DNA from: Mobula hypostoma
Lineage: Eukaryota
Length of the DNA stretch: 64,000 bases
Direction of reading: 5' to 3'
Assembly (NCBI RefSeq): GCF_963921235.1
Contig: NC_086097.1
Coordinates: 142,168,001 to 142,232,000 of the forward strand
A program made the position numbers and the translations under genes. The notes under the pieces are model-generated. The model saw nothing but the letters and a program-made list of their open reading frames with translations, searched no databases and was not told the origin of the DNA. Positions within the stretch are counted from its first letter, which is position 1; each line of letters opens with the position of its first letter. Shown piece after piece: positions 5,280 through 60,487 of the stretch.

Positions 5280-5642
5280 TACATGTTTTTTTCTCCTTCT
5301 GTCCCTCTCACTATAACTCCTTGCCTGCTCTCCACCCTCCCCCCTTCTCTTTCTCCCCAGGCTTCCCGTCCCATGATCCTCTCCTTTCTCCAGCCTGGTA
5401 TCAACTTTTCAGCTCTTAGATCCACCCCTCCCCTCCTGACTTCTCTTATCATTTCAGATCTCCCCCTCCTCTTCCCACTTTCAAATCTCTTACAATCTCT
5501 TCTTTCAGTTAGTCCTATCGAAGGGTCCCAGCCCGAAACGTCAACTGTACCTCGTCCTATAGATGCTGCCTGGCCTGCTGCGTCCACCAGCATTTTTTGT
5601 GTGTGTTCCTTGAATTTCCAGCATCTGCAGATTTCCTTGTGT
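5280..5642 (+). mobile_element. PLE 3' terminal (pLTR-like) fragment
   Basis: Closely similar to the reverse complement of 31022-31400. The hammerhead core is mutated (CTATCGA instead of CTGACGA) at about 5515-5545. Confidence 0.8.
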
Positions 5643-7080: not shown

Positions 7081-8419
7081 CAAGTGTCCCCCGCTTTTCG
7101 AACGTTCGCTTTACGACATCTCACTGTTACAAAAGACCTACATTAGTTACCTGCTTTTGCTAACAGAAGGTGTTTTCACTGTTATGAAAAAAGGCAGCGC
7201 ACGGGAAAAGCAGCCAACCTCCTCCCCCGGAACTTCATTCTAGCTGGCATTGCTTAAACACGTGCCTGTGAGCATCTGTTTGCAAGATGAGTTCTAAGGT
7301 ATTGGAAAAGCCTAAAGGAGCTCTTAAGGGTGTTACACTTAGCGTAAAACTAGACATAACTTAAGCATTTCGATCGTAGTGAACAAAGTAAGGACAAAGT
7401 GAGTTTGGCTTGTGGAAGCTGACGAAGATGATGTGAAGAGGTTTTGGCATCCCATGACCAAGAACTGGTAGATGAAGAGCTGATGCAACTGGAAGAGGAA
7501 AGGATAACAATCAAAACTGAATGCAGTAGCGAACAGACTGAAAGTGAAGTCGTCCAGGAATTGAACGTGAAGCAAATGCATGAGATGATAGAAAAATGCA
7601 CGAGGCTAGCAGATAAGCATACTGTCGTTTTTCAAGCCTTCCACATCAGCCACAGCAGATGACGAACCCTGACCTTCGACATCGAGGCAGGCAGACATAG
7701 AAGAAGGTGACCTGCCTGCCCTGATGACACCCCAGTGTCCCACGACCCCAGCCCCCGGGCCGCGGACCGATACACTGCTGCGGAGAATGCAGCAGTAGCC
7801 GGGGCGCACCCAACACATCATTAAGAAAAAAGACAAAATAAATAAACTAATTAATTAGGTGCTGCCCGGCACGTAAATGTCAGCCCAGATCAGAGGCGAT
7901 TGCCGAATGCGTCGCCTCTGATCTGGGCCGACCTTTATGTGCCAGGCAGCACCTAATTAATTAGCTTGTTTATTTCGGCCTTTTTCTTAAAGATATGTTG
8001 GGTGCGTCCCGGCCACCGCTGGACCGCTGCATTCTTCACGGATCGGTATCAGTCGGCAGCCCAGAGGGTGGAGACCACTGCACCACCCCAACCTCCGACG
8101 ACTCAGCCTAACACACCATCATCAGTGTGCTCGGCGCTGTCTTCCCGATTCCCATAAGTGATACTACACTGTAGATACATTATTTCTACTTTATATAGGT
8201 TGTGTATTTATCATATCATTCCTGCTTTTACTATATGTTACTGTTATTTTAGGTTTTGTGTGTTATTTGGCATGATTTGGTAGGTTACTTTTTGGGTCTG
8301 CGAACGCTCACAGATTTTTCCCATATAAATAAATGGTAATTGCTTCTTCACTTTACGACATTCCAGCTTAGGAACCGTTTCATAGGAACGCTCTACCTTC
8401 GGATGGCGGGGGAAACCTG
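7081..8419 (+). mobile_element. Non-autonomous Tc1/mariner Tigger-type DNA transposon
   Basis: TA flanks at 7079-7080 and 8420-8421. TIRs CAAGTGTCCCCCGC..CGAA and CAGGTTTCCCCCGC..CGAA. Transposase remnants KGVTLSVKLDITKHFDRSE (psq-type HTH) and LASHDQELVDEELMQLEEE (C-terminal). Confidence 0.85.
7733..8080. repeat. About 350-bp GC-rich imperfect palindrome (probable hAT-type MITE nested in the Tigger)
   Basis: Arms CAGTG..CTAATTAATTAGGTGCTGCCCGGCAC..CCCAGATCAGAGGCGA and TCGCCTCTGATCTGGG..GTGCCAGGCAGCACCTAATTAATTAG..CACTG, centred near 7905. Confidence 0.8.
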
Positions 8420-9989: not shown

Positions 9990-12562
9990 ACTCGTACGTG
10001 TGAAGTTGTTTCTGAATATAGGCCGAAAAGTATCCAACCCAGACAGAATAACTGGCCAACTACTAAAGTCCAGGGCTGATCAACTGGCCGAGTGTCCACT
10101 GAGAACTTTAATCTCTTGGTTCGGAAATGTGAAATACCCACCAGATTTAAGAAGGCTTCACATATCAATGTCTAAGAAGAACGTGGTAGCATGCCTCAAT
10201 GACTATCATCCAGAAGCACTTACATCCATCGTGATGAAGTGCTTTCAGAGGCTGGTGATGAAACATATCAACGTCTGCCTGAGAAGTAACTTGAATCCAC
10301 TCCAATTTGCCAACTGGCACCACGGGTCTACAGCAGATGCCATCTCAATAGCTCTTCATTCAACCCTGGAACATCTGAACAGCAAATATGCATACATCAT
10401 AATGTTCTTTATTGACTAGAGCTTGGCATTCAATACTATCATTGCCTCTAAAATAATCAAAAAGCTTCAATTCCTAAGTCTCAATACCACCTTGTTCAAT
10501 TGGATCCTCAATTTCTTCACTTGCAGACACCAGTCAGCTCAGAATGACAACATCTCCTCCACAATTCCCATCAGCATAAGTGCACCACAAGGCTGTATAT
10601 TCAGCCCCCGCTCTACTCGCTTTACACTTATAACTGTGTGGCTAATGCCACTTTCAAGTTTATTGAAAACAACACTGTCGCAGGCCAGATCAAAGATAGT
10701 AATGAATCAGTATACAGGAGGGAGATTGAAAATCTGACTGAGTGGTGTCATAACAATCTCTTACACAATGTCAGCAAAACCAAGGAGCTAATTACTGACT
10801 TCAGGAAGAGGAAACCAGAGGTCAATCAGCCAGTCCTCATCGGAGGATCAGAGGTGGAGAGGGTCAGCAACTTTAAATTTTTCAGTATTATCATTTCAGT
10901 GTTATCATTTCGGAGGACATGTCGTTGGCCCAGCAAACAAGTGCAATTATAGAAAGAGCACAGCAGCACCTCTATTTCCTTAAAAGTTTGTGAACGTTTG
11001 GCATGACATCTGAAACTTTGACCAACTTCCATAGATGTGCAGTGATAAGTATATTGACTGGCTGCATCACAGTCAACATACATCACAATGCTGTAGGAAA
11101 ACACCATTACTCTTGAATGGAAAATCCTACAAAAAGTGCTGGATACAGCCAAGTTCTCACAAGAAAAAACACATCCCATCATTAAGCACATCTACACGAA
11201 GCATTGTTGCAGGCATGTAGCATCCATCATCAGGGATACTACCATGCAGTTGACACTCTCTTCTCACTGCTGCTGTCAGGAAGGTGGTACAGGAGCCTCA
11301 GGACTCACACCACCAGGTTCAGGAACAGGGGTACCTCAACCATCAGACTCTTGAACCAAAGGGAATAACTTCACTTGCCTTGATCATTGAAATTTTACCA
11401 CAACCTATTGTGACGAAAGAGGGTTACAAAAGTACACATAGACTAAGATGTTAACTGTCCTGCGCTAGCACCAGTGGGATCAACAGTTGATCTTCCACCT
11501 GTCTTCAGGAGAAAGAGATAAGTAAGACAATGGAGCAGCATTTGGAAATGTTAATGAAGAGACGAGAGAGTTTAACGGAAGGAGACACCGGTCTGAGTAT
11601 TGTCAAGACCGGCTCCTTTTGAACCCTGAACTGTTTGAAGTGTGATGGACAGGCGATACCCCAGCAGGGAGATAAAAAGGGGCAGGTTCGCTAAGACACG
11701 ACGCACACGACTCCACGAGGTAACGAGACCCTGAAAGCGGTGTGCCCCCCCCCACTAGTTGGTGGGAGTTGTTGGAGGTCTGGTCGCGGGACCAGCCATA
11801 GACGCACAGGGTGGAAAGGTACGGATCGGTGGGAACCTGGTGTGTGTGTCCGCCCTTGCCTGGGTGCTGGGTTCACCGCAGAAGAATGATCGTATCTGGA
11901 ACGGAGGGGTCACAGTTGGTGACCTCAGAAGACATTACAAAGGGCTCGCCCGAAAGCTAACTGCTAGGAATATCAAAGGTCTGTTGAATCCGATTTGAAT
12001 ATCAGCATTTGCTCTCTCTCTCTCTCTCCAACGACACAACGGCGACTACTGCGAACTGAATTAAACTGAACTCTGTCACTTGTGATTGATCATGTTACCC
12101 CTAGACTGCGATAGAGCTTGATTGACCCTATTATCCTAGTTCTGTGTACATGTGTGTTTATTCATTGCTAACCTGTTGCATTTATATCCTTACTATTAGA
12201 GTACTGTGTTGCTTATTTCTTTAATAAAACTTTCTTAGTTCCAGTAATCCAGACTCCAATTGAGCGGTCCATTTCTGCTGGTTTGGCAACCCAGTTACGG
12301 GGTACGTAACACTATGCACTCAATTTCAAGGACTCATCATCACAAGCCCTTGATATTTATTGCTTATTTATTAATGATTATTATTTCTTTATTTTTTGTA
12401 GTTACACAGTTTGTCTTTTGCACACTGGTTGAAAGCCCGGGTTAGTTGGTCTTTCCGTCTATTATGGTTATTATTCTATTATTGTTTTACTGAGTATGCC
12501 CTCAGGGTTATGCATGGTGACATATATGTATCTTGATAATAAATTTACTTTGAACTTTGAAC
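9990..12562 (+). mobile_element. Rex1/Babar-type LINE, 5'-truncated and decayed, interrupted by a solo LTR
   Basis: RT remnants KKNVVACLNDYHPEALTSIVMKCF, PLQFA, APQGC, NVSKTKELITDFRK. 3' tail AATAAATTTACTTTGAACTTTGAAC. Confidence 0.85.
11409..12311 (+). mobile_element. Solo LTR (903 bp) of the Gmr1-like Gypsy family
   Basis: TGTGACG...CGTAACA termini, 4-bp TSD CTAT (11405-11408/12312-12315), AATAAA near 12223, and clear homology to the LTRs at 27780 and 36605. Confidence 0.92.
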
Positions 12563-27544: not shown

Positions 27545-30500
27545 AGAGCATGCCTTGGGTGATGGAGGTCCTTAATGATAAATGTTGCCTTTTTGAGGTG
27601 GCGCCTTTTGAAGATGTTGTTTAAGGAAAGGGCTGTGCCCATGATGGAACTGGCTACATCTGCAACCCTTTGCAGGCTCCTTCTATCTTATGCATTGGAG
27701 CCTGCATACCAGATTGCAATGCATCCAATCAGAATGCTCCTCATGGTGAATCTGTAGAAATTTGCTAGAGTCTTTGGTGTGTGACGAAAAACCAAGTTAT
27801 CAGAAGATTGATGCTAATGAGAGAGATAAGTGAGACAATGGAGAAACATTCAAAATGTTAATGAGAGAGGAGAGAGAGATAACGGAAAGAGACACCAGTC
27901 TGAGTATTGACAGACCAATTGCTTTGAACCTGGACTGTTTGAAGTTTGATGGACAGGCGATACCCCAGCAGGGGGATAAAAAGAACAGGTTCGCTAAGGC
28001 AAGACACACACCACGAGATCACGAGATAACGAGACCCTGGAAGAGAAGTGTGCCCCCACAAGTTGGTGGGAGTTTTGGAGGTCTGGTCGCGGGAACTGAC
28101 CATAGACGCACAGGGTGAAAAGGTACAATCGGCGGGAACCTGGTGGGTGTGTCCGCCCTTGCCTGGGTGCCAGGTTCACCGCGGAAGAACGGTCATATCA
28201 GGAACGGAGGGATCACAGTCGGTGACCACAGAAGACATAAGAGGGTTCACCCGAAAGCTAACTACGAAGAACATCAAGGTCTGTCTGAATCAGATTTGCA
28301 TATCATTCTCTCTCTCTCTCTCTCTCCCCAACGGCACAACAGCGATTACTGCGAACTGTACTAAGCTGAACTGAACTCTGCGTCACTTGAGACTGCTCAT
28401 TTTACTCCTAGACTGCGATAGAGCTTGTTTGATTCCTATTATCCTAGTTCTGTGTACATGTGTGTTTTATCATTGCTAATCTGTTGCATTTATATCCTTA
28501 CGATTGGAGTACTGTGTTACTTATTTCTTTAATAAAACTTCCTTAGTTCCAGTAATCCAGACTCCAACTAAGTGGTCCATTTCTGCTGGTTTGACAACCC
28601 AGTTACGGGGTACATAACATAAGTGGGGATCCCGCCCGCGATTTTGAACACCAAATTTGGGACTGGGTAAATTGATTGGGTTAAAATTCCCGAAAGAAAG
28701 AAAGGGCAAACAGCAGAAATGGAGATTGAGGAATTTCTAAAGGCGCCAACCTTGGAGGCATTACAGCATGCCAGGAAATCAGAGTTGGCAACTGTTGCCA
28801 AACGGTTGAATCTTTTTAAGGGGAAGTCGACAATGAGGAAAGCGGAGCTGCACAGAGCTATCACAGAGTGCTATGTATCTAAAGGTGTGTTTCCCCAAGG
28901 GGAACTGGAGGTGGTATCTATGGGCAAACCTGATGGAGCAGCAGTACAGCTGCAGATGGAAAAATTGAGACTTGAGCACGAGTTCCACAGCTGGAGCAAG
29001 AAGAGAGGGACAGGCAGTTAGAACACAAAGAGAGAATAAAACAGCTGGAGCGAGAAGAGAGGGACAGGCAGTTAGAACGGGAAGAGAAAGAGAAGGAAAG
29101 GGAGTTTGAGCTTGAGAAGTTAAGGATGACGCTAGCGCAGGGGCCCATGCCGAACCAAGGCGGAGGGTTCAGGGCGACGCAGGAGGTTAGGCTGGTTCCC
29201 CCATTTGAGGAGGCCGATGTTGATCGGTACTTTCCCCATTTTGAAAAAGTTGCTGCAAGTCAGGACTGGCCGAGGGATAAGTGGGCTGTTTTGCTTCAGA
29301 GTGTACTAAAAGGGAAAGCCCAACAAGCTTACTCGGCCTTGTCCGCAGAAGATGCCCAGAGGTATGATGTGGTGAAAGAGGCCATACTCAGGATTTATGA
29401 GTTGGTCCCGGAGGCATACCGGCAGAGGTTCCGGAATGCGAGGAAGCAGTGGGGCCCCACGTATTTAGAGTTTGCCCGTGAGATGCAGATGTATTGTGAG
29501 CATTGGTGCGCCTCGAAAGGGGTCAATGGGGATTATGACAGACTGCTACAGCTAATACTGATTGAGCACTTTAAAGGTTGTGTCCCTGAAGGTATGAGAC
29601 CCTACCTAGATGAGATAGAGGCAGACACCTTAGCCACAACTGCTAAGTTAGCAGATGAATACGCATTAATGCATAAAGCGAAGTTTACCCCGAGTAAAGG
29701 CTACCAGAAGGGTAGTCAAGAGGGCGGGGAGAGTCCACCAGAAAAGTCAGAAAGTAAGCCGGGGACTAGTGAGAAGGATAAGGAAGACCGGGAGCAGTTT
29801 GGTAGGAAGTCTCCTGGGGTCATATGCTATAATTGTGGGAAAGCTGGTCACTTTGCGTCCAGGTGCTTTGCCCCAAAGAAAGAGATGGGGAAAGGAAAAA
29901 CGACTGTTCGACTGGCTGTATTGAGCTGGCAAACAAACCGCTAGGGGAGAAGAGGTCTGATAAAGTTCAGGAAGGGCACGAGAGGTTTATCTCGGCCGGA
30001 TTGGTGTCGATGAAGGAGGGGTCACACCCGGTTTCAGTACGGATCTGGACAGACACTGGAGCTTATCAGTCATTGATATTAAAGGGTGTATTAGACTTTA
30101 GTTCAGAGACCCAGACTGGGGAGGTCAGGGTGATAAAAGGCATTGGGAAAGGGACTGAAGCGGTACCTTTGCACCAGATACACCTAAAAAGCGACTTGGC
30201 CTCCGGACCGGTCACGATAGGGGTGAGATCTGAACTACCGATGGATGAGGTGGAGGTCTTACTCGGTAATGACCTCGCTGGCGGAGAGGTGTACCCAGCA
30301 GTAAGATTGACAAGCCAACCTGCCAGGATTGAGGCCCCGCCCATGGACTCACAGGTTTATCCCGTTTGCGCAGTGACTCAGCGCATGCCCAGAAAGACTG
30401 CCGAAGTGAATATAGATTTAGCTGAGACGCTTTTACCAGCCTTGTACCGGGGGGGGGGGGGAGGTTAGAAAGTGAGAAGCAGCATAGTAAAACAGAAGGA

Positions 30501-31021
30501 AGTAAGGGAGTTGAGGTAGACTTATCATTAGCAAGGAAGGAATTTATACAGGCACAGGAGCGAGATGAGGAGCTGATGGTTTTGATGGAGACAGCTCTCT
30601 CCGAAGCAGAATTAACAAGGGAGCCAGTGGGTTATTATGTGAAGGAGGAAGTACTAAGGAGGAAATGGAGACCAAGTACCGTGCCCGCAGATGAGGAATG
30701 GGGGGTGGTGCTGAAAATTTATGGGGATGAGATTCTTAACCTGGCCCACAAGATACCCCTTGGTGGACATTTTGGGGTGAGGAAGACAATTGATAGAATC
30801 ATGAAAGAGTTTTACGGGCCACACAGGAGGAAGGATGCTATTGACTATTGTAGACGTGAGCTAACACAATTAGAGGCTATTGATATGTTAACAGCTTGCC
30901 ACGATAGGCGATCAGACCTAGTCGGCGTTATCACGAAAATTAATGAGGCTAGTGTGCCACCTGATAAGGGGAAAACCCATTTCGAAAAGGTAAGTATGGT
31001 GCCGACCAGATGGCAGAACTC

Positions 31022-32652
31022 AAACAACAGGAATTCTGCAGATGCTGCAAATTCAAGCAACATACATCAAAGTTGCTGGTGAACGCAGCAGGCCAAGCAG
31101 CATCTATAGGAAGAGGTGCAGTCGACGTTTCAGGCTGAGACCCTTCGTCAGGACTAACTGAAGGAAGAGTGAGTAAGGGATTTGAAAGTTGGAGGGGGAG
31201 GGGGAGATGCAAAATGATAGGAGAAGACAGGAGGGGGAGGGATAGAGCCAAGAGCTGGACAGGTGATAGGCAAAAGGGGATACGAGAGGATCATGGAACA
31301 GGAGGTCCGGGAAGAAAGACAAGGGGGGGGGGACCCAGAGGATGGGCAAGAGGTATATTCAGAGGGACAGAGGGAGAAAAAGGAGAGTGAGAGAAAGAAT
31401 GTGTGCATAAAAATGAGTAACAGATGGGGTACGAGGGGGAGGTGGGGCCTTAGCGGAAGTTAGAGAAGTCGATGTTCATGCCATCAGGTTGGAGGCTACC
31501 CAGACGGAATATAAGGTGTTGTTCCTCCAACCTGAGTGTGGCTTCATCTTTACAGTAGAGGAGGCCGTGGATAGACATGTCAGAATGGGAATGGGATGTG
31601 CAATTAAAATGTGTGGCCACTGGGAGATCCTGCTTTCTCTGGCGGACAGAGCGTAGATGTTCAGCAAAGCGGTCTCCCAGTCTGCGTCGGGTCTCACCAA
31701 TATATAAAAGGCCACATCAGGAGCACCGGACGCAGTATATCACCCCAGTCGACTCACAGGTGAAGTGATGCCTCACCTGGAAGGACTGTTTGGGGCCCTG
31801 AATGGTGGTAAGGGAGGAAGTGTAAGGGCATGTGTAGCACTTGTTCCGCTTACGCAGATAAGTGCCAGGAGGGAGATCAGTGGGGAGGGATGGGGGGGAC
31901 GAATGTACAAGGGAGTTGTGTAGGGAGCGATCCCTGCGGAATGCAGGGGGGGGGGGAGGGAAAGATGTGCTTAGTGGTGGGATCCCGTTGGAGGTGGCGG
32001 AAGTTACGGAAAATAATATGTTGGACCCGGAGGCTGGTGGGGTGGTAGGTGAGGACCAGGGGAACCCTATTCCTAGTGGGGTGGTGGGAGGATGGAGTGA
32101 GAGCAGATGTACGTGAAATGGGAGAGATGCGTTTAAGAGCAGAGTTGATAGTGGAGGAAGGGAAGCCCCTTTCTTTAAAAAAGGAAGACATCTCCCTTGT
32201 CCTAGAATGAAAAGCCTCATCCTGAGAGCAGATGCGGCGGAGACGGAGGAATTGCGAGAAGGGGATGGCGTTTTTGCAAGAGACAGGGTGAGAAGAGGAA
32301 TAGTCCAGATAGCTGTGAGAGTCAGTAGGCTTATAGTAGACATCAGTGGATAAGCTGTCTCCAGAGACAGAGACAGAAAGATCTAGAAAGGGGAGGGAGG
32401 TGTCGGAAATGGACCAGGTAAACTTGAGGGCAGGGTGAAAGTTGGAGGCAAAGTTAATAAAGTCAACGAGTTCTGCATGCGTGCAGGAAGCAGCGCCAAT
32501 GCAGTCGTCGATGTAGTGAAGGAAAAGTGGGGGACAGATACCAGAATAGGCACGGAACATAGATTGTTCCACAAACCCAACAAAAAGGCAGGCATAGCTA
32601 GGACCCATACGGGTGCCCATAGCTACACCTTTAGTGTAGAGGAAATGGGAGG
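31022..32652 (-). mobile_element. Penelope-like element (RT + GIY-YIG), 5'-truncated, nested in Gypsy copy A
   Basis: GVAMGTRMGPSYA, YIDD, LPFLDL, YYKPTD, then FTCESTGVIYCVRCS*CGLLYIGETRRRLGDRFAEH (GIY-YIG). Flanking duplication AGATG(G/A)CAGAACTC at 31008-31021/32653-32666. Confidence 0.93.
31120..31155 (-). ncRNA. Minimal type I hammerhead ribozyme in the PLE terminal repeat
   Basis: AGTC-CTGACGA-AGG-gtctcag-CCT-GAAAC-GTC-GACT: helix I AGTC/GACT, intact CUGANGA and GAAA boxes, helix II AGG/CCT, palindromic ACGT mini-helix III, GUC cleavage triplet. Confidence 0.8.
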
Positions 32653-35600
32653 AGATGACAGAACTCTATTGTTTGGCCAACTTTGCTGATGAGTTCTCTC
32701 ACTTAAACCCCGAACAGAGCGAGCCGCTAAGAAAGCTAATTAACCGGCACGCACACGTATGTCCGGATGTCCCGAGGCGATGCAAAGAGCCGGGACATGG
32801 TGTTGTTGTCACATCAGGTCAGTTTAGTGAGCAACACCCCTATAGGATGATTAATTCAGTGACAAAAGGGCTAAAGAATGCAGAAGCGTATATTGGCGAT
32901 TTAGTGGTCTGGAGTGACACGTGGGAGGAGCTGTTTGAAGCCAGCCTGACAGTGAACCTCGCAAAAAGTGAATTCGGCCACGGAAAGATCACTTATCTGG
33001 GATTTGTGATAAGACAGGGGCAGCTGGCACCGATGCAGGCTAAGGTGCGGGCTATCTCTGAAGTCCCCACCCCGACAGACAAGAGAGCCCTGAGAAGGTT
33101 CTTGGGGATGGTGGGGTACTATCGGAAGTTTTGCAAAAACTTTGCAAATATTACCCTCCCTCTTACTAAGCTCTTGCCAAAGAATGCTAAGTTTGTGTGG
33201 GACGACCCTTGTTATCTTTGTCCGGGACGGAAACCACTGAGAATTTACACTGATCACAACCCATTAGTGTTTTTGGCCACTATGAAGTTTGCTAAGTTGG
33301 AGCCTGGTCTTAGAGGATTATTAAAATAACACATATAAAAGGAATGGAAAGGTGATTGCTGACTGTCTGTCAAGGTGTTGACAACTTAAAGTTCTCTGTA
33401 TTAGCCGAATAGCGGATGACCCTGTATATTAGTGTGAATCTAATAATGTATTCGTGCCCCTAATTTTTACCCCAGTAAAAATCCTTTGAAGGATAGGGGT
33501 GTGACAAAAAACCAAGTTATCAGAAGATTGATGCTAATGAGAGAGATAAGTGAGACAATGGAGAAACATTCAAAATGTTAATGAGGAGAGAGAGATAACG
33601 GAAAGAGACACCAGTCTGAGTATTAACAGACCGATTGCTTTGAACCTGAACTGTTTGAAGTTTGATGGACAGGTGATATCCCAGCAGGGGGATAAAAAGA
33701 ACAGGTTCGCTGATGCAAGACACACACCACGCGATCACGAAATAATGAGACCCTGGAAAAGCGGTGTGCCCCCACAAGTTGGTGGGAGTCTTGGAGGTCT
33801 GGTCGCGGGAACTGACCATAGACGCATAGGGTGAAAAGGTACGATTGGCAGGAACCTGGTGGGTGTGTTCGCCCTTGCCTGGGTGCCGGGTTCACCGCGG
33901 AAGAACGGTCGTATCCGGAACGGAGGGGTCACAGTCGGTGACCACAGAAGACATAAAAGGGTTCACCCGAAAGCTAACTGCGAAGAACATCAAGGTCTGT
34001 CTGAATCAGATTTGCATATCATCTTCTCTCTCTCTTTCCAACGGCACAACAGTGATTACTGCGAACTGTACTAAGCTGAACTGAACTCTGCGTCACTTGA
34101 GACTGATCATTTTACCCCTAGACTGCGATAAAGCTTGTCTGATTCCTATTACCCTAGTTCTGTGTACATGTGTGTTTTATCATTGCTAATCTGTTGCATT
34201 CATATCCTTACGATTACAGTACTGTGTTACTTATTTCTTTAATAAAACTTTCTTAGTTCCAGTAATCCAGACTCCAACTAAGTGGTCCATTTCTGCTGAT
34301 TTGGCAACCCAGTTACAGAGTACATAACAGGTGACATAACAACTCTCCTCAAGCTTCTAATGAAGTATAGCCACTGGTATGCTGTCTTTATGATTGCACA
34401 ATATGGTGGGCCCAGGATAGATTTCTCTTGAGATATTAACACCCAGGAATTTGAAGCTGCTCATCCTTTTCACCACTAACCCCTCAATAAGGACTAGTGT
34501 GCTCTTCCAATTTCCCCTTCCTGAAATCCACAATCAATTCCTTGGTCTTACTGCCATAGAGTGAGAGGTTGTTGACCACTCAACCATCCAATCTATTCCA
34601 CTCCTTGCCATCTGAAATTCTTCCAACAACAGAAGTGCCATCAGTGAATTTATAGATGGCATTTGCGCTTATGCCTAGCCATACAGTCATGAGTGTGGAC
34701 AGTGTAGAGCAGTAGGCTAAGCATGCAGCTTGTGTTGATTGTCAGCGAGGAGGAGATGTTATTCGGATCTGCACTGCCTGTGGTCTCCTGTTAGGAAAGT
34801 CAATGAACCAGTTGCAGAGGGAGGTACAGAGGCCCAGGTTTTGAAGCTTTGGATTAGTACTGAGGGATGATGGTGATGAACACCAAGCTGTCAGCAATAA
34901 TCAGCAGACTGACATTTGTATTCCTGTAATCAAGGTACTCCAAAGCCAAGTGGACAACCTATGGTGTCTTTGGTGACATACCAATTCTCCTCAAATCCCT
35001 GATGAAATATAGCTAATGTCACCCCTTCTTTGTAATTGCATCAATTTGTTGAGCCCAGGAATGATCTTTAGACTTTGATACCCAGGAACTTGAAACTGTT
35101 CATTCTTTCCACTTCTGATTCCTTAATGAGGACTGACTCCCTTTCCTGAAGAAAACAATCAAGTCCTTGGTCTTACTGACGTTGAATGCAAGGTTGTTGC
35201 TGAGACTCCAATCAACTGATCTAGCTTGCTCCTGCACGCCTCCTCGTCACACCACACACCTGAAACTCTGCTAACAATAGTTGTATTGTCGACAAATTTA
35301 TAGATGACCTTTGAGCTGTGCCTAGCTACACAATTATGTGAATACAGAGGACAGAGCAATGGGCTAAGCATGTAATATTTAGCAAATGCTAACTAACCTG
35401 TATTTCATGCTTTATAATCAATTTATTTTGATCAAAAGTAGTTATATTTCCTTTTTCAAAGCTCATGAGATTTACCCAGACCTCGAGATTCCACCTCTGA
35501 CAAGGTTATTTTGTTAAGTTTGATAATTAAACCACACCAGAATCAAAGCTTAATGATCAGAATTGAGTAAAATTCCTTTGGTCAGTAACAAGAAACAAGC

Positions 35601-35950
35601 AGAGAAACATCAGTAGTAACAAACAGGACTTAAATAGAAAGCCTTTGTTGGCTTTCGCACATCTAATATGTTATAAAACTCTGCAGAAGTCACTTCGAAA
35701 ACTGTACTTGCATAAAAGTCAGTAAGAGACAAGATAATTATAGAAAAACATTCGTCTGTAACTACTATTCTGTAACAAGAGATATTTTGAAAAGACCTTA
35801 CCCTGTGCTGCACAAAGCAACTTGAGAAGCTAAAACTGTTAATCATTCACAGTTCAATTGAAATCTAAATATCTCAATTTTCTTGGATGGAAGTAGGTAA
35901 AGGGGAAAAAAAACCACATGATATGGAACTGTACTGAGGCAGGGGTACCG

Positions 35951-36494
35951 TGTTGTTAACTCACCGTAAAACAATCTACTCTTTCTAACTTCCCCGATCA
36001 TTTCTTTTACCCTAACAAACTATTTACCCTCAAGTGCATAACCAATTCCCTCTTGAAAGCAAGCCAAAATTTATTTGCGACCCAGCTCCTTAAAACAAGA
36101 TAAAATCTTCAGATATCCTTTGTATCTTTATTCCATATTTTATCTTTGTAATTAAGTTGTGGCTCCAGCAAACCAGGTAGGGCATTCTTTTCTTTAATTA
36201 AGGTGGCTGGAGTGTCTAACAAATTGATTGTTCTTTGTATCAATAGTCCATTGACTTGGCCGGAATGGTTATCAAGTTGATTGTTCTTTTGTATCAGTGG
36301 CCTTATAACTTCTGACAATTCTGACGTCAAGCAGTGAACTTGTAGAACCGCCAGAGAGATGAGAAAGGGTCTCTCCCTGATGTTGGGTCCAAGTTCACTT
36401 GCCGGCTGAGCTCAAAGAAATAAACGGGTGAAAAGATAAGTAATGATCTTTTTGTGCTGTCGTTATTTGATCTAGCAAAGTTATGTTTACAACA
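35951..36494 (+). mobile_element. Solo LTR, ERV-like, with no evident similarity to the other LTRs here (544 bp)
   Basis: Inverted termini TGTTGTTAAC / GTTTACAACA (9/10), flanks ACCG/ACAG, duplicated motif TTGATTGTTCTTT(T)GTATCA (36224, 36277), TTATAA 36303, hairpin AGTGAACTTG/CAAGTTCACT, AATAAA 36419. Confidence 0.65.
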
Positions 36495-37609
36495 ACAGGA
36501 AGATTCCCAGAATATCCCCTCATCCCTAATAACGTAGGGCCCAGCATACAAATGTTAACAGACAAGTTCAGCCAGAAGCAATGAATAGATATTTCATTTT
36601 GGTTTGTTACGTACCCCGTAACTGGGTTGCCAAACCAGCAGAAATGGATCACTCAGTTGGAGTCTGGAGTACTAGAACTAAGAAAGTTTTATTAAAGAAA
36701 CAAGCAACACAGTAATCGAAAGGATAATAAATGCAACAGTTCAGTGATGATAAACACACATGTGCACAGAATTAAGATAACAGCATCAATCAAGCTCTAT
36801 CGTTGTCTAGGGGTAAATGACCAATTTCAAAATGACTCAAAGTTCAGTCCAGTTTAGTAGTTCAGTTCACAGTAATCGTTGCCATGGCGGTGGACAACGT
36901 GGGGGAAGAGAGAGATAGAATAGGAACAACTCATCATTCAGAACGGCTTCACTCACAGACCAGCGGGATGGCTCACAGACCAGCGAGATGGCTCACAAAC
37001 AGCTTTTGGGCGGGTCCTTGGTGATGTCACCTGAGGTCACCGACTGTGACCCCTCCTCCAGATGCGGTCGATCCTCTGCAGTGAACCCGGCACCCAGGCA
37101 AGGGCGGACACACACCGGGTTCCCGCTGATCGTACCTTTCCACCCTTGTCGTTGTCCGGTACTTCTCACCCACTCATGAGAAGCGCACCGCTTCCAGGGT
37201 CTCGTTACCTCGGGTGGCGTGTGTGTCTGTCTTAGCGAACCTGTCCCTTTTTATCCCCCTGCTGGGGTATCACCTGTCCATCACTTCAAACAGTTCAGGG
37301 TTCAAAGGGGGGAGCCGCTCCAGACAGCTCTTCCTCCCACATCCCTTCATTACACATCTCCAGACGCTGCTCCATTGTTCCTTATCTCTCCTTCCCCTGA
37401 GGGCAGGTGGCAGACCAACTGCTGATGCCACTGATGCTAGCCCAGGCCAGCAAACATCTTAATTTTATGTGTATTCTCGTAACACTTCCCCCCTTTAAGG
37501 ATTTTTACCGGGAGGTAAAAATTACAAACATGACTACATTATCTGATACATACACAATATACATCTTTAACAGTTATTTAGCTAATACAGAGAATTTGAA
37601 GCTGTCAAC

Positions 37610-38241
37610 ACCTTGACAGACAGTCATCACATTTTCTGTTCCTTTTACACGTGTTATTAATAATTCCTTAGACCAGGCTCCAACTCAGCAAACTTCATAG
37701 TGGCCAAAAACACTGATGAATTGCGACCAATGTAACCTCTCATTTGGTTTTTGTCCCGGACCACAATAACAAGGGTCGTCCCATTCCGACTCAATTTTCT
37801 CTCGCAAGGGCTTAGTAGGAGGGGGACGGGTATTGACCGCAGAGTTATTGCAAAACTTCCTGCAGTACCCCACCATCTCCAAAAGCCTTCTGAGGGCCCT
37901 CTTGTCTGTCGGGGTTGGGAGGTCAGCGATAGCCTGCACTGTAGCTTGCATCACTGCCAGCTGCCCCTGTGTCACCACAATTCCCAGGTAAGTGACTCTC
38001 GTGTGGCCGAATTCATTTTTTTCAAGGTTCACTATCAAACTGGCTTCAGACAGCCGTGTTAAATTGCCAATACACACCTCTGTGTTCATCAGCCCTTTAG
38101 TCACTGAATTACTCGAAAAATATGGGTGTTGTTTACTTGGCTGCCCTATTGTAACAGACATAACCCAACGTCCCAGTTCTTTGCATTTCCTCGGGACAAT
38201 CAAACACATGGGTGCGAGTCATTTAATTACTCCTTCGGGGA
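37610..38241 (-). pseudogene. Copy B deleted RT/RNase H remnant
   Basis: KQHPYFSSNSVTKGLMNTEVCIGNL (catalytic YxDD lost), VTYLG, LRRLLEMVGYCRKF, WDDPCYCGPGQKP. Confidence 0.85.
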
Positions 38242-40557
38242 TTAAGGGAGAGACCTTATCAGTAGACCTGGCCAAAACAATAGCCTTCTCCCATCTGACC
38301 GATCCCATCCTAATCTTTTCAAAATGGTTTTTTCCTCTATCAAGGGGCCCCTAGCATCATTGATTTCCACGCTAACACCGACTAGGTTTGTTAGCATATC
38401 AAAAGCCGGTGACCGTCTCAGTTCGCGTCGGTCATGATCAATAACATTCTTCCCCCTGGGCAGCCGGTAAATCTCTTTCATGATTCCACCAACTGTTTCC
38501 TCCAGCACCGCAAAATGTCCACCGGGGGGTACCTCGTGGGCCATGTTAAAAACCTCATCCCCATAACTCTTTTGCACCACCCCCCATTCCTCATCTGCGG
38601 GTACTGTACTTGATTTCCCTTTCTTCCTTAGCACTTCCTCCTCCGCACAATAGCTTGTCAAGGCTGTGTCAGAGAGAGCGGTCTCGGCAAAAACCATCAG
38701 CCCCTCGTCTCGCTCCTGCGTCTGCACAAATTCTTTCCTGGCTACTGCTACGTCCGTCCCAGCTCCCTCACTACCTCTTATCTCACTACACCCTGTCTCA
38801 TACAAGGTTGGCAGAAATGTTTCAGCCAAATTCACCATCGCGGGCGGGGCCTCCATGCTGGCAGGCTGACCCGTCAATCTCACGACTGGGAACACGATTC
38901 CTCCGGCGATGTCATTACCGAGCAAGACTTCCACGTCTTTCATCGGTAATTCGGACCTCACCCCAATCGTGACTAGTCCAGAGACCAGGTTGCTCTGTAA
39001 GTGTATCTGGTGCAAAGGGACTGACTCTGTCCCTTCCCCAACACCTTTGACCTCTACCTCCCCAGTCTGGGTCTCTGAGCTAAACTCTAATACACTCTTC
39101 AGTATTAGTGACTGACACGCTCCCGTGTCTCTCCAGATCCGCACTGGAACTGGTTTTAACCTCTTTTTCACTGACACCAGTCCGGCCGAGATAAACCTCT
39201 CGCGCCCTTCCTGGACTTTTTCAGACCTGTCCTTCCCTAGCGGTTCGCTTAACAGCTCAATACAGCCATTCAAAATTTCCGCTTTTCCTTTCCCCGTCTC
39301 CTTCCTTGGGGCAAAGCACCTGGACGCAAAGTGTCCGACTTTCCCACAATTATAACAGACGACCCCAGGAGACTTCCTACCAGACTGCTCCCGGTCTACC
39401 TTATCCTTTTCACTAGTCCCCGGCTTACTTTCTGACTTTTCCGGTGGACTCTCCCCGCCGTCCTGACTACCCTTCTGGTAGCCTTTACTCGGGGCAACCT
39501 TCATTTTATGCGTCAACGCATACTCATCCGCTAACTTAGCAGTTGCGGCTAACGTGGCTGCCTCTTTCTCATCGAGGTAGGGTCTCATACCCTCAGGGAC
39601 ACAACCTTTAAACTGCTCAATCAGAACCAGTTGCAGCAGTCTGTCATAATCCCCCTCTACCCCTTTCGAGGCGCACCAACGCTCACAATATGTTTGCATC
39701 TCACGAGCAAACTCCAAATACGTGCGGTCCCACCGCTTCCTCGCATTCCGGAACCTCTGACGGTATGCCTCCGGGACCAACTCATAAATCCTGAGGATGG
39801 CCTCCTTCACCACCTCATACTTCTGGGCATCTTCCGCGGATAAAGCGGAGTAAGCTTGTTGGGCCTTCCCTTTCAGTACACTCTGAAGTAAGACAACCCA
39901 CTTATCCCTCGGCCAGTCCTGACTTATAGCTACTTTTTCGAAGTGGAGAAAGTACCGATCCACATCGGTATCGTCAAATGGGGGAACCAGCCTAACCTCC
40001 TGGGTCGCCCGGAACCCTCCACCTTGGTTCGGCACGAGCCCCTGCTCGGCCCTTATCTTTAACTTCTCCAGCTCAAATTCCCTTTCCCTCTGTTTCTCCT
40101 CTCTCTCCAACTGCCTGTCCCTCTCTCTCTCTTCTCTCTCCAACTGTCTTTCTCTCTCTTGCCTTTCTACCTCTTTCTCTCTCTCCCGCCTTTCTAACTC
40201 TTTCTCTCTCTCCCGCCTTTCTAACTCTCTCTCTTTCTCCTGCCTTTCTAACTCTCTCTCTTTCTCCTGCCTTTCTAACTGCCGTACCCGGAACTCGTGC
40301 TCGAGTCTCAGTTTTTCAAGCTGTACCTGTACCGCGTCTCCAGCAGGTTTTCCAATAGACACCTCCCCCAGCTCACCTTGGGGAAACACACCTTTAGATA
40401 CATAGTGCTCTACAATAGCTCTGTGTATCTCCTCTCTCCTCATTGTCGACTTCACCTTAGCAAGATTCACCCGTTTTGCCACAGCTATCAATTCCGATTT
40501 CCTGGCATCCTCTAATGCCTCCAAGGTCGGCGCCTTTATAAATTCCTCAACCTCCAT
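38242..40557 (-). CDS. Uninterrupted 771-aa Gag-protease polyprotein of Gypsy copy B with a degenerate integrase zinc-finger tail
   Basis: E/R coiled coil, SCAN-like capsid (LLQLVLIEQFK), CCHC CYNCGKVGHFASRC, protease IWRDTGACQSLI..LLGNDIAGG, AHEVPPGGHF. Confidence 0.9.
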   Translation of the reverse strand: MEVEEFIKAPTLEALEDARKSELIAVAKRVNLAKVKSTMRREEIHRAIVEHYVSKGVFPQGELGEVSIGKPAGDAVQVQLEKLRLEHEFRVRQLERQEKERELERQEKERELERREREKELERREREKEVERQERERQLEREERERDRQLEREEKQREREFELEKLKIRAEQGLVPNQGGGFRATQEVRLVPPFDDTDVDRYFLHFEKVAISQDWPRDKWVVLLQSVLKGKAQQAYSALSAEDAQKYEVVKEAILRIYELVPEAYRQRFRNARKRWDRTYLEFAREMQTYCERWCASKGVEGDYDRLLQLVLIEQFKGCVPEGMRPYLDEKEAATLAATAKLADEYALTHKMKVAPSKGYQKGSQDGGESPPEKSESKPGTSEKDKVDREQSGRKSPGVVCYNCGKVGHFASRCFAPRKETGKGKAEILNGCIELLSEPLGKDRSEKVQEGRERFISAGLVSVKKRLKPVPVRIWRDTGACQSLILKSVLEFSSETQTGEVEVKGVGEGTESVPLHQIHLQSNLVSGLVTIGVRSELPMKDVEVLLGNDIAGGIVFPVVRLTGQPASMEAPPAMVNLAETFLPTLYETGCSEIRGSEGAGTDVAVARKEFVQTQERDEGLMVFAETALSDTALTSYCAEEEVLRKKGKSSTVPADEEWGVVQKSYGDEVFNMAHEVPPGGHFAVLEETVGGIMKEIYRLPRGKNVIDHDRRELRRSPAFDMLTNLVGVSVEINDARGPLIEEKTILKRLGWDRSDGRRLLFWPGLLIRSLP

Positions 40558-41859
40558 TTCTGCTGTTTGTCTTTTCTTTCTTTCGGGAATTTTAACCCAA
40601 TCAATTTACTCCGTCCCAAATTTAGCGTTCAAAATCGCGGACGAGAACCCCACTTATGTTACGTACCCCGTAACTGGGTTGCCAAACCAGCAGAAATGGA
40701 TCACTCAGTTGGAGTCTGGAGTACTAGAACTAAGAAAGTTTTATTAAAGAAACAAGCAACACAGTAATCGAAAGGATAATAAATGCAACAGTTCAGTGAT
40801 GATAAACACACATGTGCACAGAATTAAGATAACAGCATCAATCAAGCTCTATCGTTGTCTAGGGGTAAATGACCAATTTCAAAATGACTCTAAGTTCAGT
40901 CCAGTTTAGTAGTTCAGTTCGCAGTAATCGTTGCCATGGCGGTGGACAACGTGGGGGAAGAGAGAGATAGAATAGGAACAACTCATCATTCAGAACGGCT
41001 TCACTCACAGACCAGCGGGATGGCTCACAGACCAGCGAGATGGCTCACAAACAGCTTTTGGGCGGGTCCTTGGTGATGTCACCTGAGGTCACCGACTGTG
41101 ACCCCTCCTCCAGATGCGGTCGATCCTCTGCAGTGAACCCGGCACCCAGGCAAGGGCGGACACACACCGGGTTCCCGCTGATCGTACCTTTCCACCCTTG
41201 TCGTTGTCCGGTACTTCTCACCCACTCATGAGAAGCGCACCGCTTCCAGGGTCTCGTTACCTCGGGTGGCGTGTGTGTCTGTCTTAGCGAACCTGTCCCT
41301 TTTTATCCCCCTGCTGGGGTATCGCCTGTCCATCACTTCAAACAGTTCAGGGTTCAAAGGGGGGAGCCGCTCCAGACAGCTCTTCCTCCCACATCCCTTC
41401 ATTACACATCTCCAGACGCTGCTCCATTGTTCCTTATCTCTCCTTCCCCTGAGGGCAGGTGGCAGACCAACTGCTGATGCCACTGATGCTAGCCCAGGCC
41501 AGCAAACATCTTAATTTTATGTGTATTCTCGTAACAGGTTTCATTCTGAGATTCTCACTGTTACAGAAATCAATCGTTAGTCAACTCACTCGAAGTGACA
41601 TCAAGGCCAAGAGCACTGCATCCCATAAACGGTCTGGACTCATATACTGCAGTCGTAATGCCGAAGACCTGAACTTCAGAATTAGTTGTGACTTGAGCCA
41701 AGATGTTCCAGTACAGTTATAATGCTGGCATCTATCAAACAACGTGGAACATTGCCCAACTATATCCTGATCACAAAAATATAGTGCAAATTGGCCAATA
41801 ACTACCCAGTTAGGCCTGACTCAATTGCCAGAAAATTGATAGAAGACATCATTAACAGC

Positions 41860-42465
41860 ACAAACAAGAGAAAATCTGCAGATGCTGGAAATCCAAACAC
41901 ACACAAAATGCTGGAGGAACTCAGCAGGCCAGGCAGCATCTACAGTTGATGTTTTAGGCCAAGATTCTTCAGCAGGACTGGAGAAAAGAAAAAGATGAGG
42001 AGTAGAGTTAAAAGGTGGGGGAGGGAGAAACACAAGGTGATAGGTGAAACCAGGAGGGAGAGGGATGTAGCAAAGTGTTTGGAAGTTCATTGGTGAAAGG
42101 GCTGGAGAAGAGGGAACCTAATAGGAGAGGACAGAAGGCTGTGGAAGAAAGAAAAAGGGGGGGGTGCACAAGAAGGAGGTAATGAGCAGGCAAGGGGATA
42201 AGGTGAAAGAGGGAAAAGGGGATGGGGAATGGTGAAGGGGTGCATTACCAGAAGTTGGAGAAATCAATGTTCATGCCATCAGGTTGGAGGCTACCCAAGC
42301 AGAATATAAGGTGTTGTTCCTCCAACCTGAGTGTGGCCTCATTGCGACAGTGGAGGAGACCACAGATAGATATACTGGAATGGGAATAGAAAGTGGAATT
42401 AAAATGGGTGACCACTGGGAGATCCCGCTTTTTCTGGTGGATAGAGCACAGGTGTTTGGCGAAGC
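41860..42465 (-). mobile_element. PLE 3' fragment (GIY-YIG C-terminus + terminal repeat)
   Basis: FAKHLCSIHQKKRDLPVVTHFNS..RLEEQHLIFCLGSLQPDGMNIDFSNF, with a decayed hammerhead motif at about 41944-41980. Confidence 0.85.
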
Positions 42466-47579: not shown

Positions 47580-49895
47580 ACAGATGGCAGGATTCTGAAA
47601 GAACATGTTTTCAAAAACACCCAGAAGATCAGGCAATATATGTGGAGAAGGGAAAGAAGCACAGGGAGAGAAACAGCCAAAGTTTCAAGTTAAGAGTTGA
47701 TGGTTTGGGCTGATACCCTTCATCAGGACTGGAAATGGGGAAGAAGTCAAAATAAAGTGGGGGGGGGTTGGAATAGAGTACAAGCTAGAAGATGAAAGGT
47801 GAAGCCATGTGGGGTCAGGTAGGTGGGAGCAGAGTGTGAGACTGAAGTGAGAAGCTGGGAGGCCTGAAGAAGTACGAATCCAATCGACGAGGAGAGTGGA
47901 CCATGGGAAAAAGGGAAGAGCACCAGAGGGAGGTGATAGGCAGAGAGGAGAAAAGAAGAGGTAAAAGAGGAGCTAGAATGGGTAATGAAAAAGGAGAGAA
48001 CAGGAGAATAGAGAAATTACCGCAAGGTGTTGCTCCTCCAATCTGTGTGGTCTTATCACAGCTGTGTAAGAGGCCATGGACTGACATGTCAGAATGGAAA
48101 TAGGAAGTAGAATTGAAATGGATGGCTACTGGGAGATCCCACTTTTTCTGGCAAATGGAGTGTAGATGCTTAGTGAAGCAGTCTCCCAATCTACGTCTGA
48201 TCTCACCAATATACAGGAGGCCACACCAGGAGCACCAGATACAGTAGATGACAGCAACAGACTCACAGATGAAATGTTGCCTCACCTGGAAGAACTGTCT
48301 GGGGCCCTGAATGTTAGTGAGGGTGGTGGTGTAGGGGCAGTTGTGGCACTTGTTCCATTGCAAGCGAAAGTACCAGGAGAGAGATCAGTGCAGAGGGACG
48401 AATGGACAACGGAGTCACGTAAGAAGCGATCCCTGCAGAAAGTGGGGTGGAAAGAAAAGATGTGCTTGGTGGTGGGATCCTGTTGGTGAGGAGAGATTAC
48501 AAAGAATAAGTGCTGGACGCGGAGGTTGCTTCTTGCACACATGCCGAGCTTGTTGACTTCATCAACTTTGCCTCCAACTTTCACCCTGCCTCAAATTTAC
48601 CTGATCCATTTCCGACACCTCCCTCCTCTTTCTCGATCTCTCTGTCTCTATCTCACGAGACAGTTTATCCACTGATATTTTTTATAAACCCACTGACTCT
48701 CACAGCTCCCTGGACTACACCTGTTCCCACCCTATCACTTGTAAAAATGCCATCCTCTTCTCTCAATTCCTCTGCCTCTACCACATCTGCTCTCAGCATG
48801 AAGTTTTTCCATTCCAGAACTAATGAGATGCCCTCCTTCTTCAAAGAAGGACTTTCCTTCCTCCACCATCAAAGCTGCCTTCGCCTGCACCTCTTCCACT
48901 TCACGCACATCTGCCCTCACCCCATCCACCTGCCAAGGATTGGGTACCTCTTGTCCTCAACTACCTGTGTCCAGCACACAGTTCTGCATAATTTCTGCCA
49001 TCGCCAATGGGATCCCACCACCAAGCACATCTTTCCCTCTCCCTGTTCCCCCCCCCACCCCCCACTTTCCACTTCCTATGCAACTTCCTTGTTCATTTAT
49101 CCCTCCCTGCTGATCTCCATCCTGGTACTTATCTTTGCAAGTGGAATGTGCCACATTTGCCCTTTCACCTCCACCCTCGCTAACATTCAGGGCCCCAAAC
49201 AGTCCTTCCAGGAGAGGCAACACTTTACCACTGAATCTGTTATTTACTGTATCCAGTGCTCCCGGTGTGGCCTCCCATATATTGATGAGACCCGAAGTAG
49301 ACTGAGAGACCACTTCGCCAAGCACCTGTGTTCCATCCGCCAGAAAAAGTGGGATCTCCTGGTGGCCACCCATTTTAATTCTATTTCCCATTCCAACATG
49401 CCAGTCCATGGCCTCCTCTACTGACACAATGAGGCCATGCTCAGGTTGGAGGAGCAGCACCTTATATTCCGTCTGGGTAGCCTCCAACCTGACGGGGTGA
49501 ACATCAATTTCTCATGCTTCTGGTAATTGCCCTCCCCCCTTCACCACTCCCATTTCCTTCTCTCACCTCATCTCCTTACCTACCCATCACCTCCCTCTGG
49601 AGCTCCTCCCCCTTCCCTTTCTTCCATGGCCTTCTGTCCTCCCCCATCAGATTCCTCCTTCTCCAGGCCTTTAATCTCTTTCACCAATCAACATCTTAGC
49701 TCTTTACTTCACCCCTTCCCCAGTTTCACCTATCATCCACTACCTTGTACTTCTTCCTCCCCTCCCCCCACTCCCTTCCTTTGACTTATCTCTTCTTTCC
49801 AGTCCTGATAAATGGTCTTGTCCCAAAACGTCGACTGTTTACTCTTTTCGACAGATGTTGCTTGCCCTGCTGAGTCTCTCCAGCACTTTGTGTGT
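47580..49895. mobile_element. Two decayed PLE 3' halves in inverted, tail-outward arrangement (minus about 47580-48490; plus about 48515-49895)
   Basis: Both arms carry GIY-YIG remnants (VIYCIWCSWCGLLYIGE; VIYCIQCSRCGLPYIDE) and terminal repeats with decayed hammerhead motifs (about 47700-47732 and 49800-49836). Confidence 0.85.
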
Positions 49896-60238: not shown

Positions 60239-60487
60239 CACAAACAAGAGAAAGTCTGCAGATGCTGGAAATCAAAGCAACACACACAAAATGCTGGAGG
60301 AACTCAGCAGGCCAGGCAGCACTGGTGGAAAAAAGTACAGTCGATGTCTCAGGCCGGGACCCTTCAGTAGAACTCATATAACCAAAAGTTCTGCCGAAGG
60401 GTCTTGGCCTGAAACGTTGCCTATATTTCTTTCCATAGATACTGCCTGGCCTGTTGAGTTCCTCCAGCATTTTGTGTGTGCTGCTTC
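60239..60487. mobile_element. Inverted pair of PLE terminal repeats (tails outward)
   Basis: Minus arm 60239-60374 and plus arm 60387-60487, each with a mutated hammerhead motif. Confidence 0.82.

Follow-up and report, generated by a model that had tools for sequence, protein, structure and literature searches.

A Gmr1-like Gypsy lineage in Mobula hypostoma keeps gag and protease, carries a gutted pol and likely depends on helper enzymes

Two long terminal repeat (LTR) retrotransposons of the Gmr1-like Gypsy type, element A on the plus strand and element B on the minus strand, lie in opposite orientation in a 64,000-nt window of Mobula hypostoma (NC_086097.1, 142,168,001-142,232,000; all positions below are given within this window). 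It is likely that A is an old and B a young member of one long-lived lineage in which integrase (IN), reverse transcriptase (RT) and RNase H were gutted while gag and protease were kept, and which likely uses the enzymes of pol-complete helper elements. Our best reading of the sequences is that this hollow lineage would be a semi-autonomous Gag-protease donor mobilized in trans, with selection on translation through what is left of its pol.

A first-pass annotation of this DNA had claimed that A and B share the same junctions in pol despite clearly different LTRs, and all of the junctions it named were located in both copies. One needed correction, as the QHPY/NSVT junction is present in both but with three residues between the two motifs, not two. 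The parts of the two elements, and of a solo LTR of the same family, are as follows.

27780-34329, plus strand: element A; LTRs of 840 and 830 nt, 787 of 830 aligned bases identical; target-site duplication (TSD) GGTG
27780..28619, plus strand: element A 5' LTR (TG...CA), with TSD GGTG directly before it
28620..28637, plus strand: element A primer-binding site (PBS), which we take to be of the tRNA-Pro type
28719..30400 (end approximate), plus strand: element A gag and protease; coiled-coil, SCAN/capsid, CCHC, DTG at 30052
30401..31020 (start approximate), plus strand: 5' part of the element A pol remnant, with what is left of the integrase zinc finger, a junction of 15 nt at 30696 and the integrase-core junction at 30846-30860
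31021..32652, minus strand: Penelope-like insertion inside the element A pol remnant; 1.63 kb, 13-nt duplication
32653..33420 (end approximate), plus strand: element A pol remnant, 3' part; RT junction at 32838, YIGD at 32889, RNase H junction at 33204, 14-nt junction at 33279
33488..33499, plus strand: element A polypurine tract (PPT)
33500..34329, plus strand: element A 3' LTR, followed by TSD GGTG
36605-41536, minus strand: element B; LTRs of 880 nt, 99.66% identical; TSD GGTT
40657..41536, minus strand: element B 5' LTR; identity to young pol-complete LTRs 93-97%
40639..40656, minus strand: element B PBS, with variants also present among young pol-complete copies
39300..40557 (lower bound approximate), minus strand: element B gag; ATG at 40557, SCAN/capsid, CCHC at 39357
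38860..39299 (bounds approximate), minus strand: element B linker and protease; DTG at 39129; specific to the hollow lineage and under purifying selection
37657..38859, minus strand: element B pol remnant; junctions at 38589, 38433 (IN), 38126 (RT), 37777 (RNase H) and 37701
37485..37496, minus strand: element B PPT, identical in most young pol-complete copies examined
36605..37484, minus strand: element B 3' LTR; TSD GGTT
11409..12311, plus strand: solo LTR belonging to the same family, with TSD CTAT; identity 86-91% to LTRs of early intermediate hollow copies (I1, described below)

Over about 700 nt, the LTRs of A and B share about 73% identity. Frameshifts have broken both window copies; gag and protease of A are spread over several reading frames, and the pol remnant of B is interrupted by two single-base frameshifts, near 38337 and 37748. 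The capsid, CCHC knuckle and protease DTG were nevertheless said to be preserved, and they are: Pfam matched SCAN and CCHC in both elements, and the DTG motifs stand at 30052 and 39129. Pfam also matched the integrase zinc finger in A, and no rve or RVT_1 match was obtained in any of the nine window translations. The reported loss of the IN DDE core, the N-terminal RT motifs and the N-half of RNase H agrees with this absence and with an alignment to three complete Gmr1-like polyproteins, which shows gaps where the annotation had placed them.

Measured against pol-complete relatives, the three large deletions are 867, 384 and 258 nt long and all in frame. The first takes the IN core and most of the IN C-terminal part, the second is the N-half of RT and the third the N-half of RNase H. 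Their ends carry direct repeats of 4-5 nt (IN), 7 nt (RT) and about 1 nt (RNase H), and we infer that they arose by RT template switching at microhomologies. The several clean internal gaps with the frame kept would also suit introns, the hollow element then being a retro-copied spliced subgenomic RNA of its helper. We give this practically no credence, as the IN and RT junctions in pol-complete relatives show direct repeats rather than GT-AG ends, and a GT-AG reading of the RNase H gap misses the actual junction by one base.

A- and B-type copies have equal spacing across the three large junctions. Two small junctions, EEWGVV and ACTATGAAG, postdate the large ones; they are undeleted in 5/30 and 11/30 A-type loci, respectively, and deleted in 29/29 B-type copies. 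Because the small junctions are polymorphic in A-type copies and fixed in B, pol erosion was stepwise. A last deletion of 14 nt stops the frame a few dozen codons early, from which the extreme C terminus appears to be dispensable. One further copy (L150; G000:C18:79334500-79344000) has the RT and RNase H junctions together with an intact IN core and LTRs 93% alike, and may be either an early intermediate or a recombinant. A gapped pattern for IN-intact, RT-deleted copies gave 0 matches, although this one known example would not match it either.

The hollow lineage is large. Exact junction patterns found 1,029 B-type, 215 A-type and 1,542 generic RT junctions, with 0 matches to reversed-pattern controls, which puts family size, as measured by the RT junction pattern, at no fewer than 1,542 copies. 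When the internal region of B was used for a search, 40 places were scored of 3,081 candidates, and 39 of them were full length at 97-100% identity. For closer study we took the 30 best matches to the window copy, 29 of which were parsed (L026, tandem or nested, was left out). These copies are 4.85-4.95 kb long; 28/29 have a perfect 4-nt TSD, and LTR pairs are at least 99% identical in 22/29 (100% in 4). DTG and CCHC are retained in 29/29, whereas not one of seven catalytic motifs of IN, RT and RNase H is retained in any of the 29. In 25/29 a single open reading frame (ORF) of 970-987 aa takes in gag, protease and all of the pol remnant, the window copy being among the four with a broken frame; that the remnant is in frame with gag-protease in most B copies had escaped the first-pass annotation. 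A search with the 5' part of A yielded older copies, 83-93% identical and with broken frames. The generic junction matches also include graded intermediates, I1-I4, of which 20, with internal regions of 3.1-3.3 kb, were fetched from contig C1.

Five young B copies with intact TSDs (L002, L003, L004, L005 and L011) have LTR pairs that differ by 2-6%, which suggests LTR conversion or a recombinant origin and means that LTR dating can mislead in this family; four of the five have an open frame of 970-982 aa. Tandem elements with a common central LTR were seen at L137, L055/L057 and L026. The gag coiled-coil (40081-40280 in B, 28999-29087 in A) is a variable 27/33-nt tandem repeat, and the length variants common to several B copies are all in frame.

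These copies bear on whether A and B simply decayed independently, or reflect a segmental duplication or an assembly artefact. Both are frameshifted and A carries a private insertion, as one might expect in that case. Yet the breakpoints coincide, the 1,542 junction matches are dispersed with distinct TSDs and include graded junction variants, and contigs from independent public runs bridge the junctions (IN, RT and RNase H in one organism, and IN at about 94% identity in a second). We therefore regard independent decay or artefact as having almost no chance of being right, and the annotation's picture of a long-lived, propagating lineage is upheld by the recurrence of the RT junction in over 1,500 additional copies. 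Read cover over the element with none over its unique flank was set aside as evidence of transcription, since low-coverage DNA of a 1,000-copy repeat gives the same.

An autonomous partner had been called for, and pol-complete relatives with matching LTR termini, PBS and PPT are present in the genome. A pattern for the undeleted RT junction gave four matches, three of them distant and one a close, pol-complete relative that is 84-89% identical to an A-type copy. Three further pol-complete copies have A-like gag, at 85-93% per segment. The pol-complete relatives are 6.3-6.7 kb long with frames of 1,414-1,580 aa and can be sorted by age into P1 (30 loci, mutually 88-94% identical), P2 (about 94%) and P3 (8 loci, 95-99%). 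P3 has LTR pairs 95-100% identical, and all tested motifs stand in one frame in 3/8 loci. P3 LTRs are 93-97% identical to those of B, their termini and PBS variants are the same, and the PPT is the same in most P3 copies. P1 was considered as the helper of B and rejected as too old, a full frame being found in none of its 30 loci. In the youngest pair, a P3-specific RT motif gave 17 matches against the 1,029 B junctions, or about 60 hollow copies to one helper; older pol-complete copies number in the hundreds (920 candidates). Three PBS variants occur in 8, 20 and 1 of 29 hollow copies and in 2, 3 and 1 of 7 young pol-complete copies (the seventh has another), and the two or three held in common fit either ongoing exchange or primer-templated repair.

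A sawfish integrase core used as bait did not recover the parent. The 30 copies fetched with it belong to more distant Gmr1-like families, with about 66-72% DNA identity to A and B over short stretches (150 of 18,463 candidates scored). Loci L061-L090 and L096-L098 belong to at least two other Gmr1-like families that are more distant, the copies examined being old and decayed, and in one of these loci a gag fragment of the present family type is nested in a copy of a more distant Gmr1-like family (L079:2502-3573).

Comparison of B with P3 reveals a mosaic. Identity is 95-99.5% from the PBS to the CCHC and 95% in the 3' tail, vs 82-89% in linker and protease and 71% (56-84%) in the pol remnant; gag of B is a helper-type segment, 98-99% identical to young pol-complete copies. 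Trees were built from alignments of 43-46 copies, with helpers sampled as 3 P1, 3 A-like, 3 P2 and 4 P3; trees for the approximately unbiased (AU) tests leave out one odd copy. In the remnant tree all 33 hollow copies form one ladder-like clade (A, I1, I2, I3, I4, B; support 100), and a B+P3 grouping is rejected (p-AU 3e-10). In the gag tree, by contrast, B groups with P3 (99-100) and P2 falls among the I2 copies, and monophyly of the hollow copies is rejected (p-AU 2e-31). The LTRs of the 20 intermediates shift likewise: those of I1 are A-like, most of I2 and I3 are P2-like (86-93%) and most of I4 are P3-like (87-92%). From the conflict between the remnant and gag trees, together with this shift, it follows that hollow elements alone have handed down the pol scar, whereas the 3' tail, LTR, PBS and gag are held in common with contemporary helpers. 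The LTR difference between A and B thus cannot serve as a date under simple descent, as the earlier argument had used it, because LTR and gag were exchanged with successive helper subfamilies.

In the protease tree I2-I4 and B form their own clade with support of 92-97, and vertical descent of the protease rests on this support, the AU tests on this segment not being decisive.

Selection was examined in quartets, counting only differences common to two natural copies on each side. Along the hollow trunk, the nonsynonymous-to-synonymous ratio (pN/pS) of the protease is 0.14-0.33 in 7/7 quartets (P 0.02 to 1e-7) and that of the capsid 0.11-0.23, vs 0.69-0.92 for the pol remnant, whose same codons give 0.15-0.18 in autonomous quartets. 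The pairwise dN/dS of the protease between B and P3 is 0.17 (dS 0.37). The comparison of gag-protease with the remnant that the first-pass annotation had proposed thus came out as it expected, at about 0.1-0.3 vs 0.7-0.9, and protease and remnant differ in 6/7 hollow quartets (Fisher P 8e-5 to 0.025). The amino acids of the remnant therefore appear to drift, with a hint of residual constraint.

The reading frame of the remnant behaves differently from its amino acids. No stop is fixed in its 383 codons, with about 186 trunk substitutions counted in 294 of them; about 5.5-8 stops would be expected under neutrality (P0 4e-4 to 4e-3, in a simple model). From the end of the protease to the RNase H junction, 13/13 net trunk indels are in frame, whereas 8/8 private non-coil indels in B copies are frame-shifting. 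Judged from these sequences, retention of the frame points to selection on translation through the scar. The stop of B lies about 1 kb before the poly(A) signal, vs about 2.2 kb for a stop placed just after the protease.

Several observations weigh against this reading and against vertical descent of the protease. The protease AU test rejects neither a grouping of B with helpers (p 0.175) nor monophyly of all hollow copies (p 0.14), and an unsampled autonomous donor of the B protease is possible. The contrast between protease and remnant is not significant in the quartet B|I3 (Fisher 0.079). Some quartets show constraint on the remnant (0.69, P 0.023; 0.46 in one sub-segment, P 0.017), which could reflect a residual role of the protein. 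Microhomologies in coding DNA favor in-frame deletions, and errors in the assembly may account for private single-base indels, with the result that the 13-vs-8 contrast exaggerates selection. The fractions of intact ORFs are biased upward, as the B set consists of best matches and the intermediates come from one contig. The purifying selection seen on gag could have operated in the helper before the segment was transferred. Finally, the 3' untranslated region of B is already about 1 kb long, which weakens a pure decay-escape reading.

Some of these points would suit a pure parasite, whose RNA is packaged by helper particles, whose gag and protease are refreshed by recombination and whose open frame reflects nothing but in-frame deletion bias. 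The gag of B is not distinguishable from young helper gag, and a helper origin of the protease segment survives the AU test. We still consider this unlikely, given that I2-I4 and B stand together in the protease tree (92-97), with pN/pS of 0.14-0.33 along that clade, and that the remnant has stayed free of fixed stops through so many substitutions. We think it quite improbable, too, that the remnant polypeptide has a job of its own, for example as a catalytically inactive RT-thumb or zinc-finger fragment that brings in helper Pol or attaches to the element's RNA, in a cis-acting fusion. Its frame is conserved, its pN/pS is below 1 in 7/7 hollow quartets (significantly in one), the C-terminal part of RT gives 0.39-0.50 on the B|I2 trunk (not significant), and the mouse IAP 1Δ1 fusion is reported to act in cis (PMC6466679). 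Against it stand the loss of the zinc-finger cysteines and YxDD, the accumulation of 13 indels and an amino-acid divergence severalfold higher than autonomous copies show at these codons.

Returning to a Gag-protease donor mobilized in trans, its life cycle can be sketched from established LTR-retrotransposon biology combined with the sequence patterns above. The hollow RNA would be transcribed from a helper-like LTR, translated into a Gag-protease-scar protein and then assembled with helper Gag-Pol, and it would likely be co-packaged with RNA of the rarer pol-complete sister lineage. The helper would carry out reverse transcription from the shared PBS and PPT, and its integrase would insert the product with a 4-nt TSD, as in the helper itself. 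Because the two RNAs would be co-packaged, recombination in shared particles could repeatedly exchange the ends and gag. The hollow element would in turn supply Gag and protease to mixed particles. Its frame would be kept since translation to near the natural stop aids its own RNA, not for any enzymatic job of the scar; the benefit might come in cis, as with IAP 1Δ1, or from avoiding nonsense-mediated decay. The element was earlier thought to build its own particle, which we too would infer, yet mixed particles seem as likely, since the gag of B is indistinguishable from that of its helper.

Since one frame encodes both Gag and Pol in Gmr elements, a partner that makes only Gag-protease could supply surplus capsid, and the helper gag nested in the hollow ladder makes it possible that the hollow lineage has been a gag donor. 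More specifically, we propose tentatively, as a reading more likely to be wrong than right, that the hollow lineage is a co-evolving Gag donor rather than a passenger, which at about 60 copies to one provides its helper with the surplus Gag that a fused gag-pol frame cannot yield, shares one recombining gag/LTR pool with it, is selected for translation as such and in this way has held about 380 codons of pol, without enzymatic function, open through many generations of subfamilies.

The assignment to Gmr1-like Ty3/Gypsy elements is a probable one, made from domain order and similarity to database polyproteins. Integrase lies upstream of RT, and the remnant keeps the order zinc finger, IN C terminus, RT, RNase H of the complete relatives; a single fused gag-pol ORF, SCAN-like capsid, CCHC, TG...CA LTRs, PBS, PPT and short TSD are also present. 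The best full-length relatives are polyproteins of 1,400-1,700 aa, the best named one being from Pristis pectinata, and their order of protease, IN, RT and RNase H (PR-IN-RT-RH) is the Gmr1 arrangement. Fish Gmr elements are given as 6.1-6.5 kb long with one fused ORF of 1,506-1,634 aa in PMC11117352, where the term 'non-autonomous' is absent. The hollow copies resemble such elements in their single gag-pol frame, PR-IN-RT-RH order and SCAN-like capsid, and the sizes of their complete relatives match. Unlike them, the hollow element is 4.9 kb long, lacks the IN core and the N-halves of RT and RNase H and cannot be autonomous; the catalytic residues of an autonomous Gmr1-like element (IN DDE, RT YxDD, RNase H) are missing from all 29 parsed B copies.

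The closest system in logic is mouse IAP 1Δ1, a non-autonomous element with an internal deletion and one gag-pol fusion ORF that accounts for most new insertions and whose fusion is reported to act in cis (PMC6466679 and PMC7411935). In both cases deletions keep one gag-pol fusion frame. IAP, however, is an endogenous retrovirus whose one 1.9-kb deletion includes part of gag, so that Gag is needed in trans, whereas here a Gypsy element with gag and protease whole has undergone many stepwise deletions and left a long fossil series.

In anatomy the closest are two high-copy Gypsy derivatives of wheat, RLG_Sabrina_SA, which keeps GAG-protease and is called 'semi-autonomous', and RLG_Quinta, which keeps GAG. 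PMC9744471 and PMC11302176 propose both as Gag donors to an autonomous partner (Quinta to RLG_Cereba), with LTR transfer. Like Sabrina_SA, the hollow element is a high-copy GAG-protease ORF without functional RT or IN, and it has an autonomous partner in the 8 young pol-complete loci with matching LTR termini, PBS, PPT and activity period. The wheat elements differ in being from plants and in having no pol, which here persists as an in-frame scar, and Quinta gag is strongly diverged from that of its helper, whereas gag here is homogenized with the helper's. TR-GAG elements of plants are described in PMC4350172 as non-autonomous, LTR-bounded, apparently active and under 4 kb, with one Gag ORF. 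At 4.9 kb, with protease and a pol remnant, the hollow element falls outside that group. Du et al. are said to have described in 2010 a soybean autonomous-nonautonomous pair whose partnership is maintained by LTR swapping. Unlike in that pair, exchange here takes in the 3' tail, the LTR, the PBS and gag up to its end, and it recurred in at least two generations of helpers. Neither a non-autonomous Gmr1-like family nor this hollow family is described in the titles and abstract openings searched, which include few subscription journals and do not extend to Repbase or Dfam.

Other repeats in the window were also noted. The insertion at 31021-32652 has a weak GIY-YIG match and an RT fragment, and it is private to element A rather than part of the family, as 29/29 other A-type loci are uninterrupted there. 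Related Penelope-like fragments with GIY-YIG and RT pieces, 69-81% alike, lie at 31021-32652, 41861-42465, 48024-49539 and 5288-5637. At 7790-8021 and 60275-60486, sequences of about 100-110 nt are paired in near-perfect inverted orientation around 12-nt spacers and look like short interspersed repeats placed head to head.

Most known non-autonomous LTR elements that retain Gag are from plants, and mouse IAP is the main known case of in-frame gag-pol fusion; the lifestyle is a known one, recorded here in unusual detail. At about 4.9 kb and at least 1,500 copies, the hollow lineage makes up at least about 7 Mb of the genome, and annotation keyed on RT or IN would overlook it. Both partners are preserved at several ages in one genome, where the helper-matched blocks (3' tail, LTR, PBS and gag), an independent and selected protease and a decaying but open pol scar are all visible. 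Two questions thereby become testable on sequence alone: are such elements parasites or donors of Gag, and is translation itself under selection? If the tentative reading as a co-evolving Gag donor is true, the hollow lineage would be a long natural experiment showing that the RNA of an LTR element must be translated to near its end for mobility.

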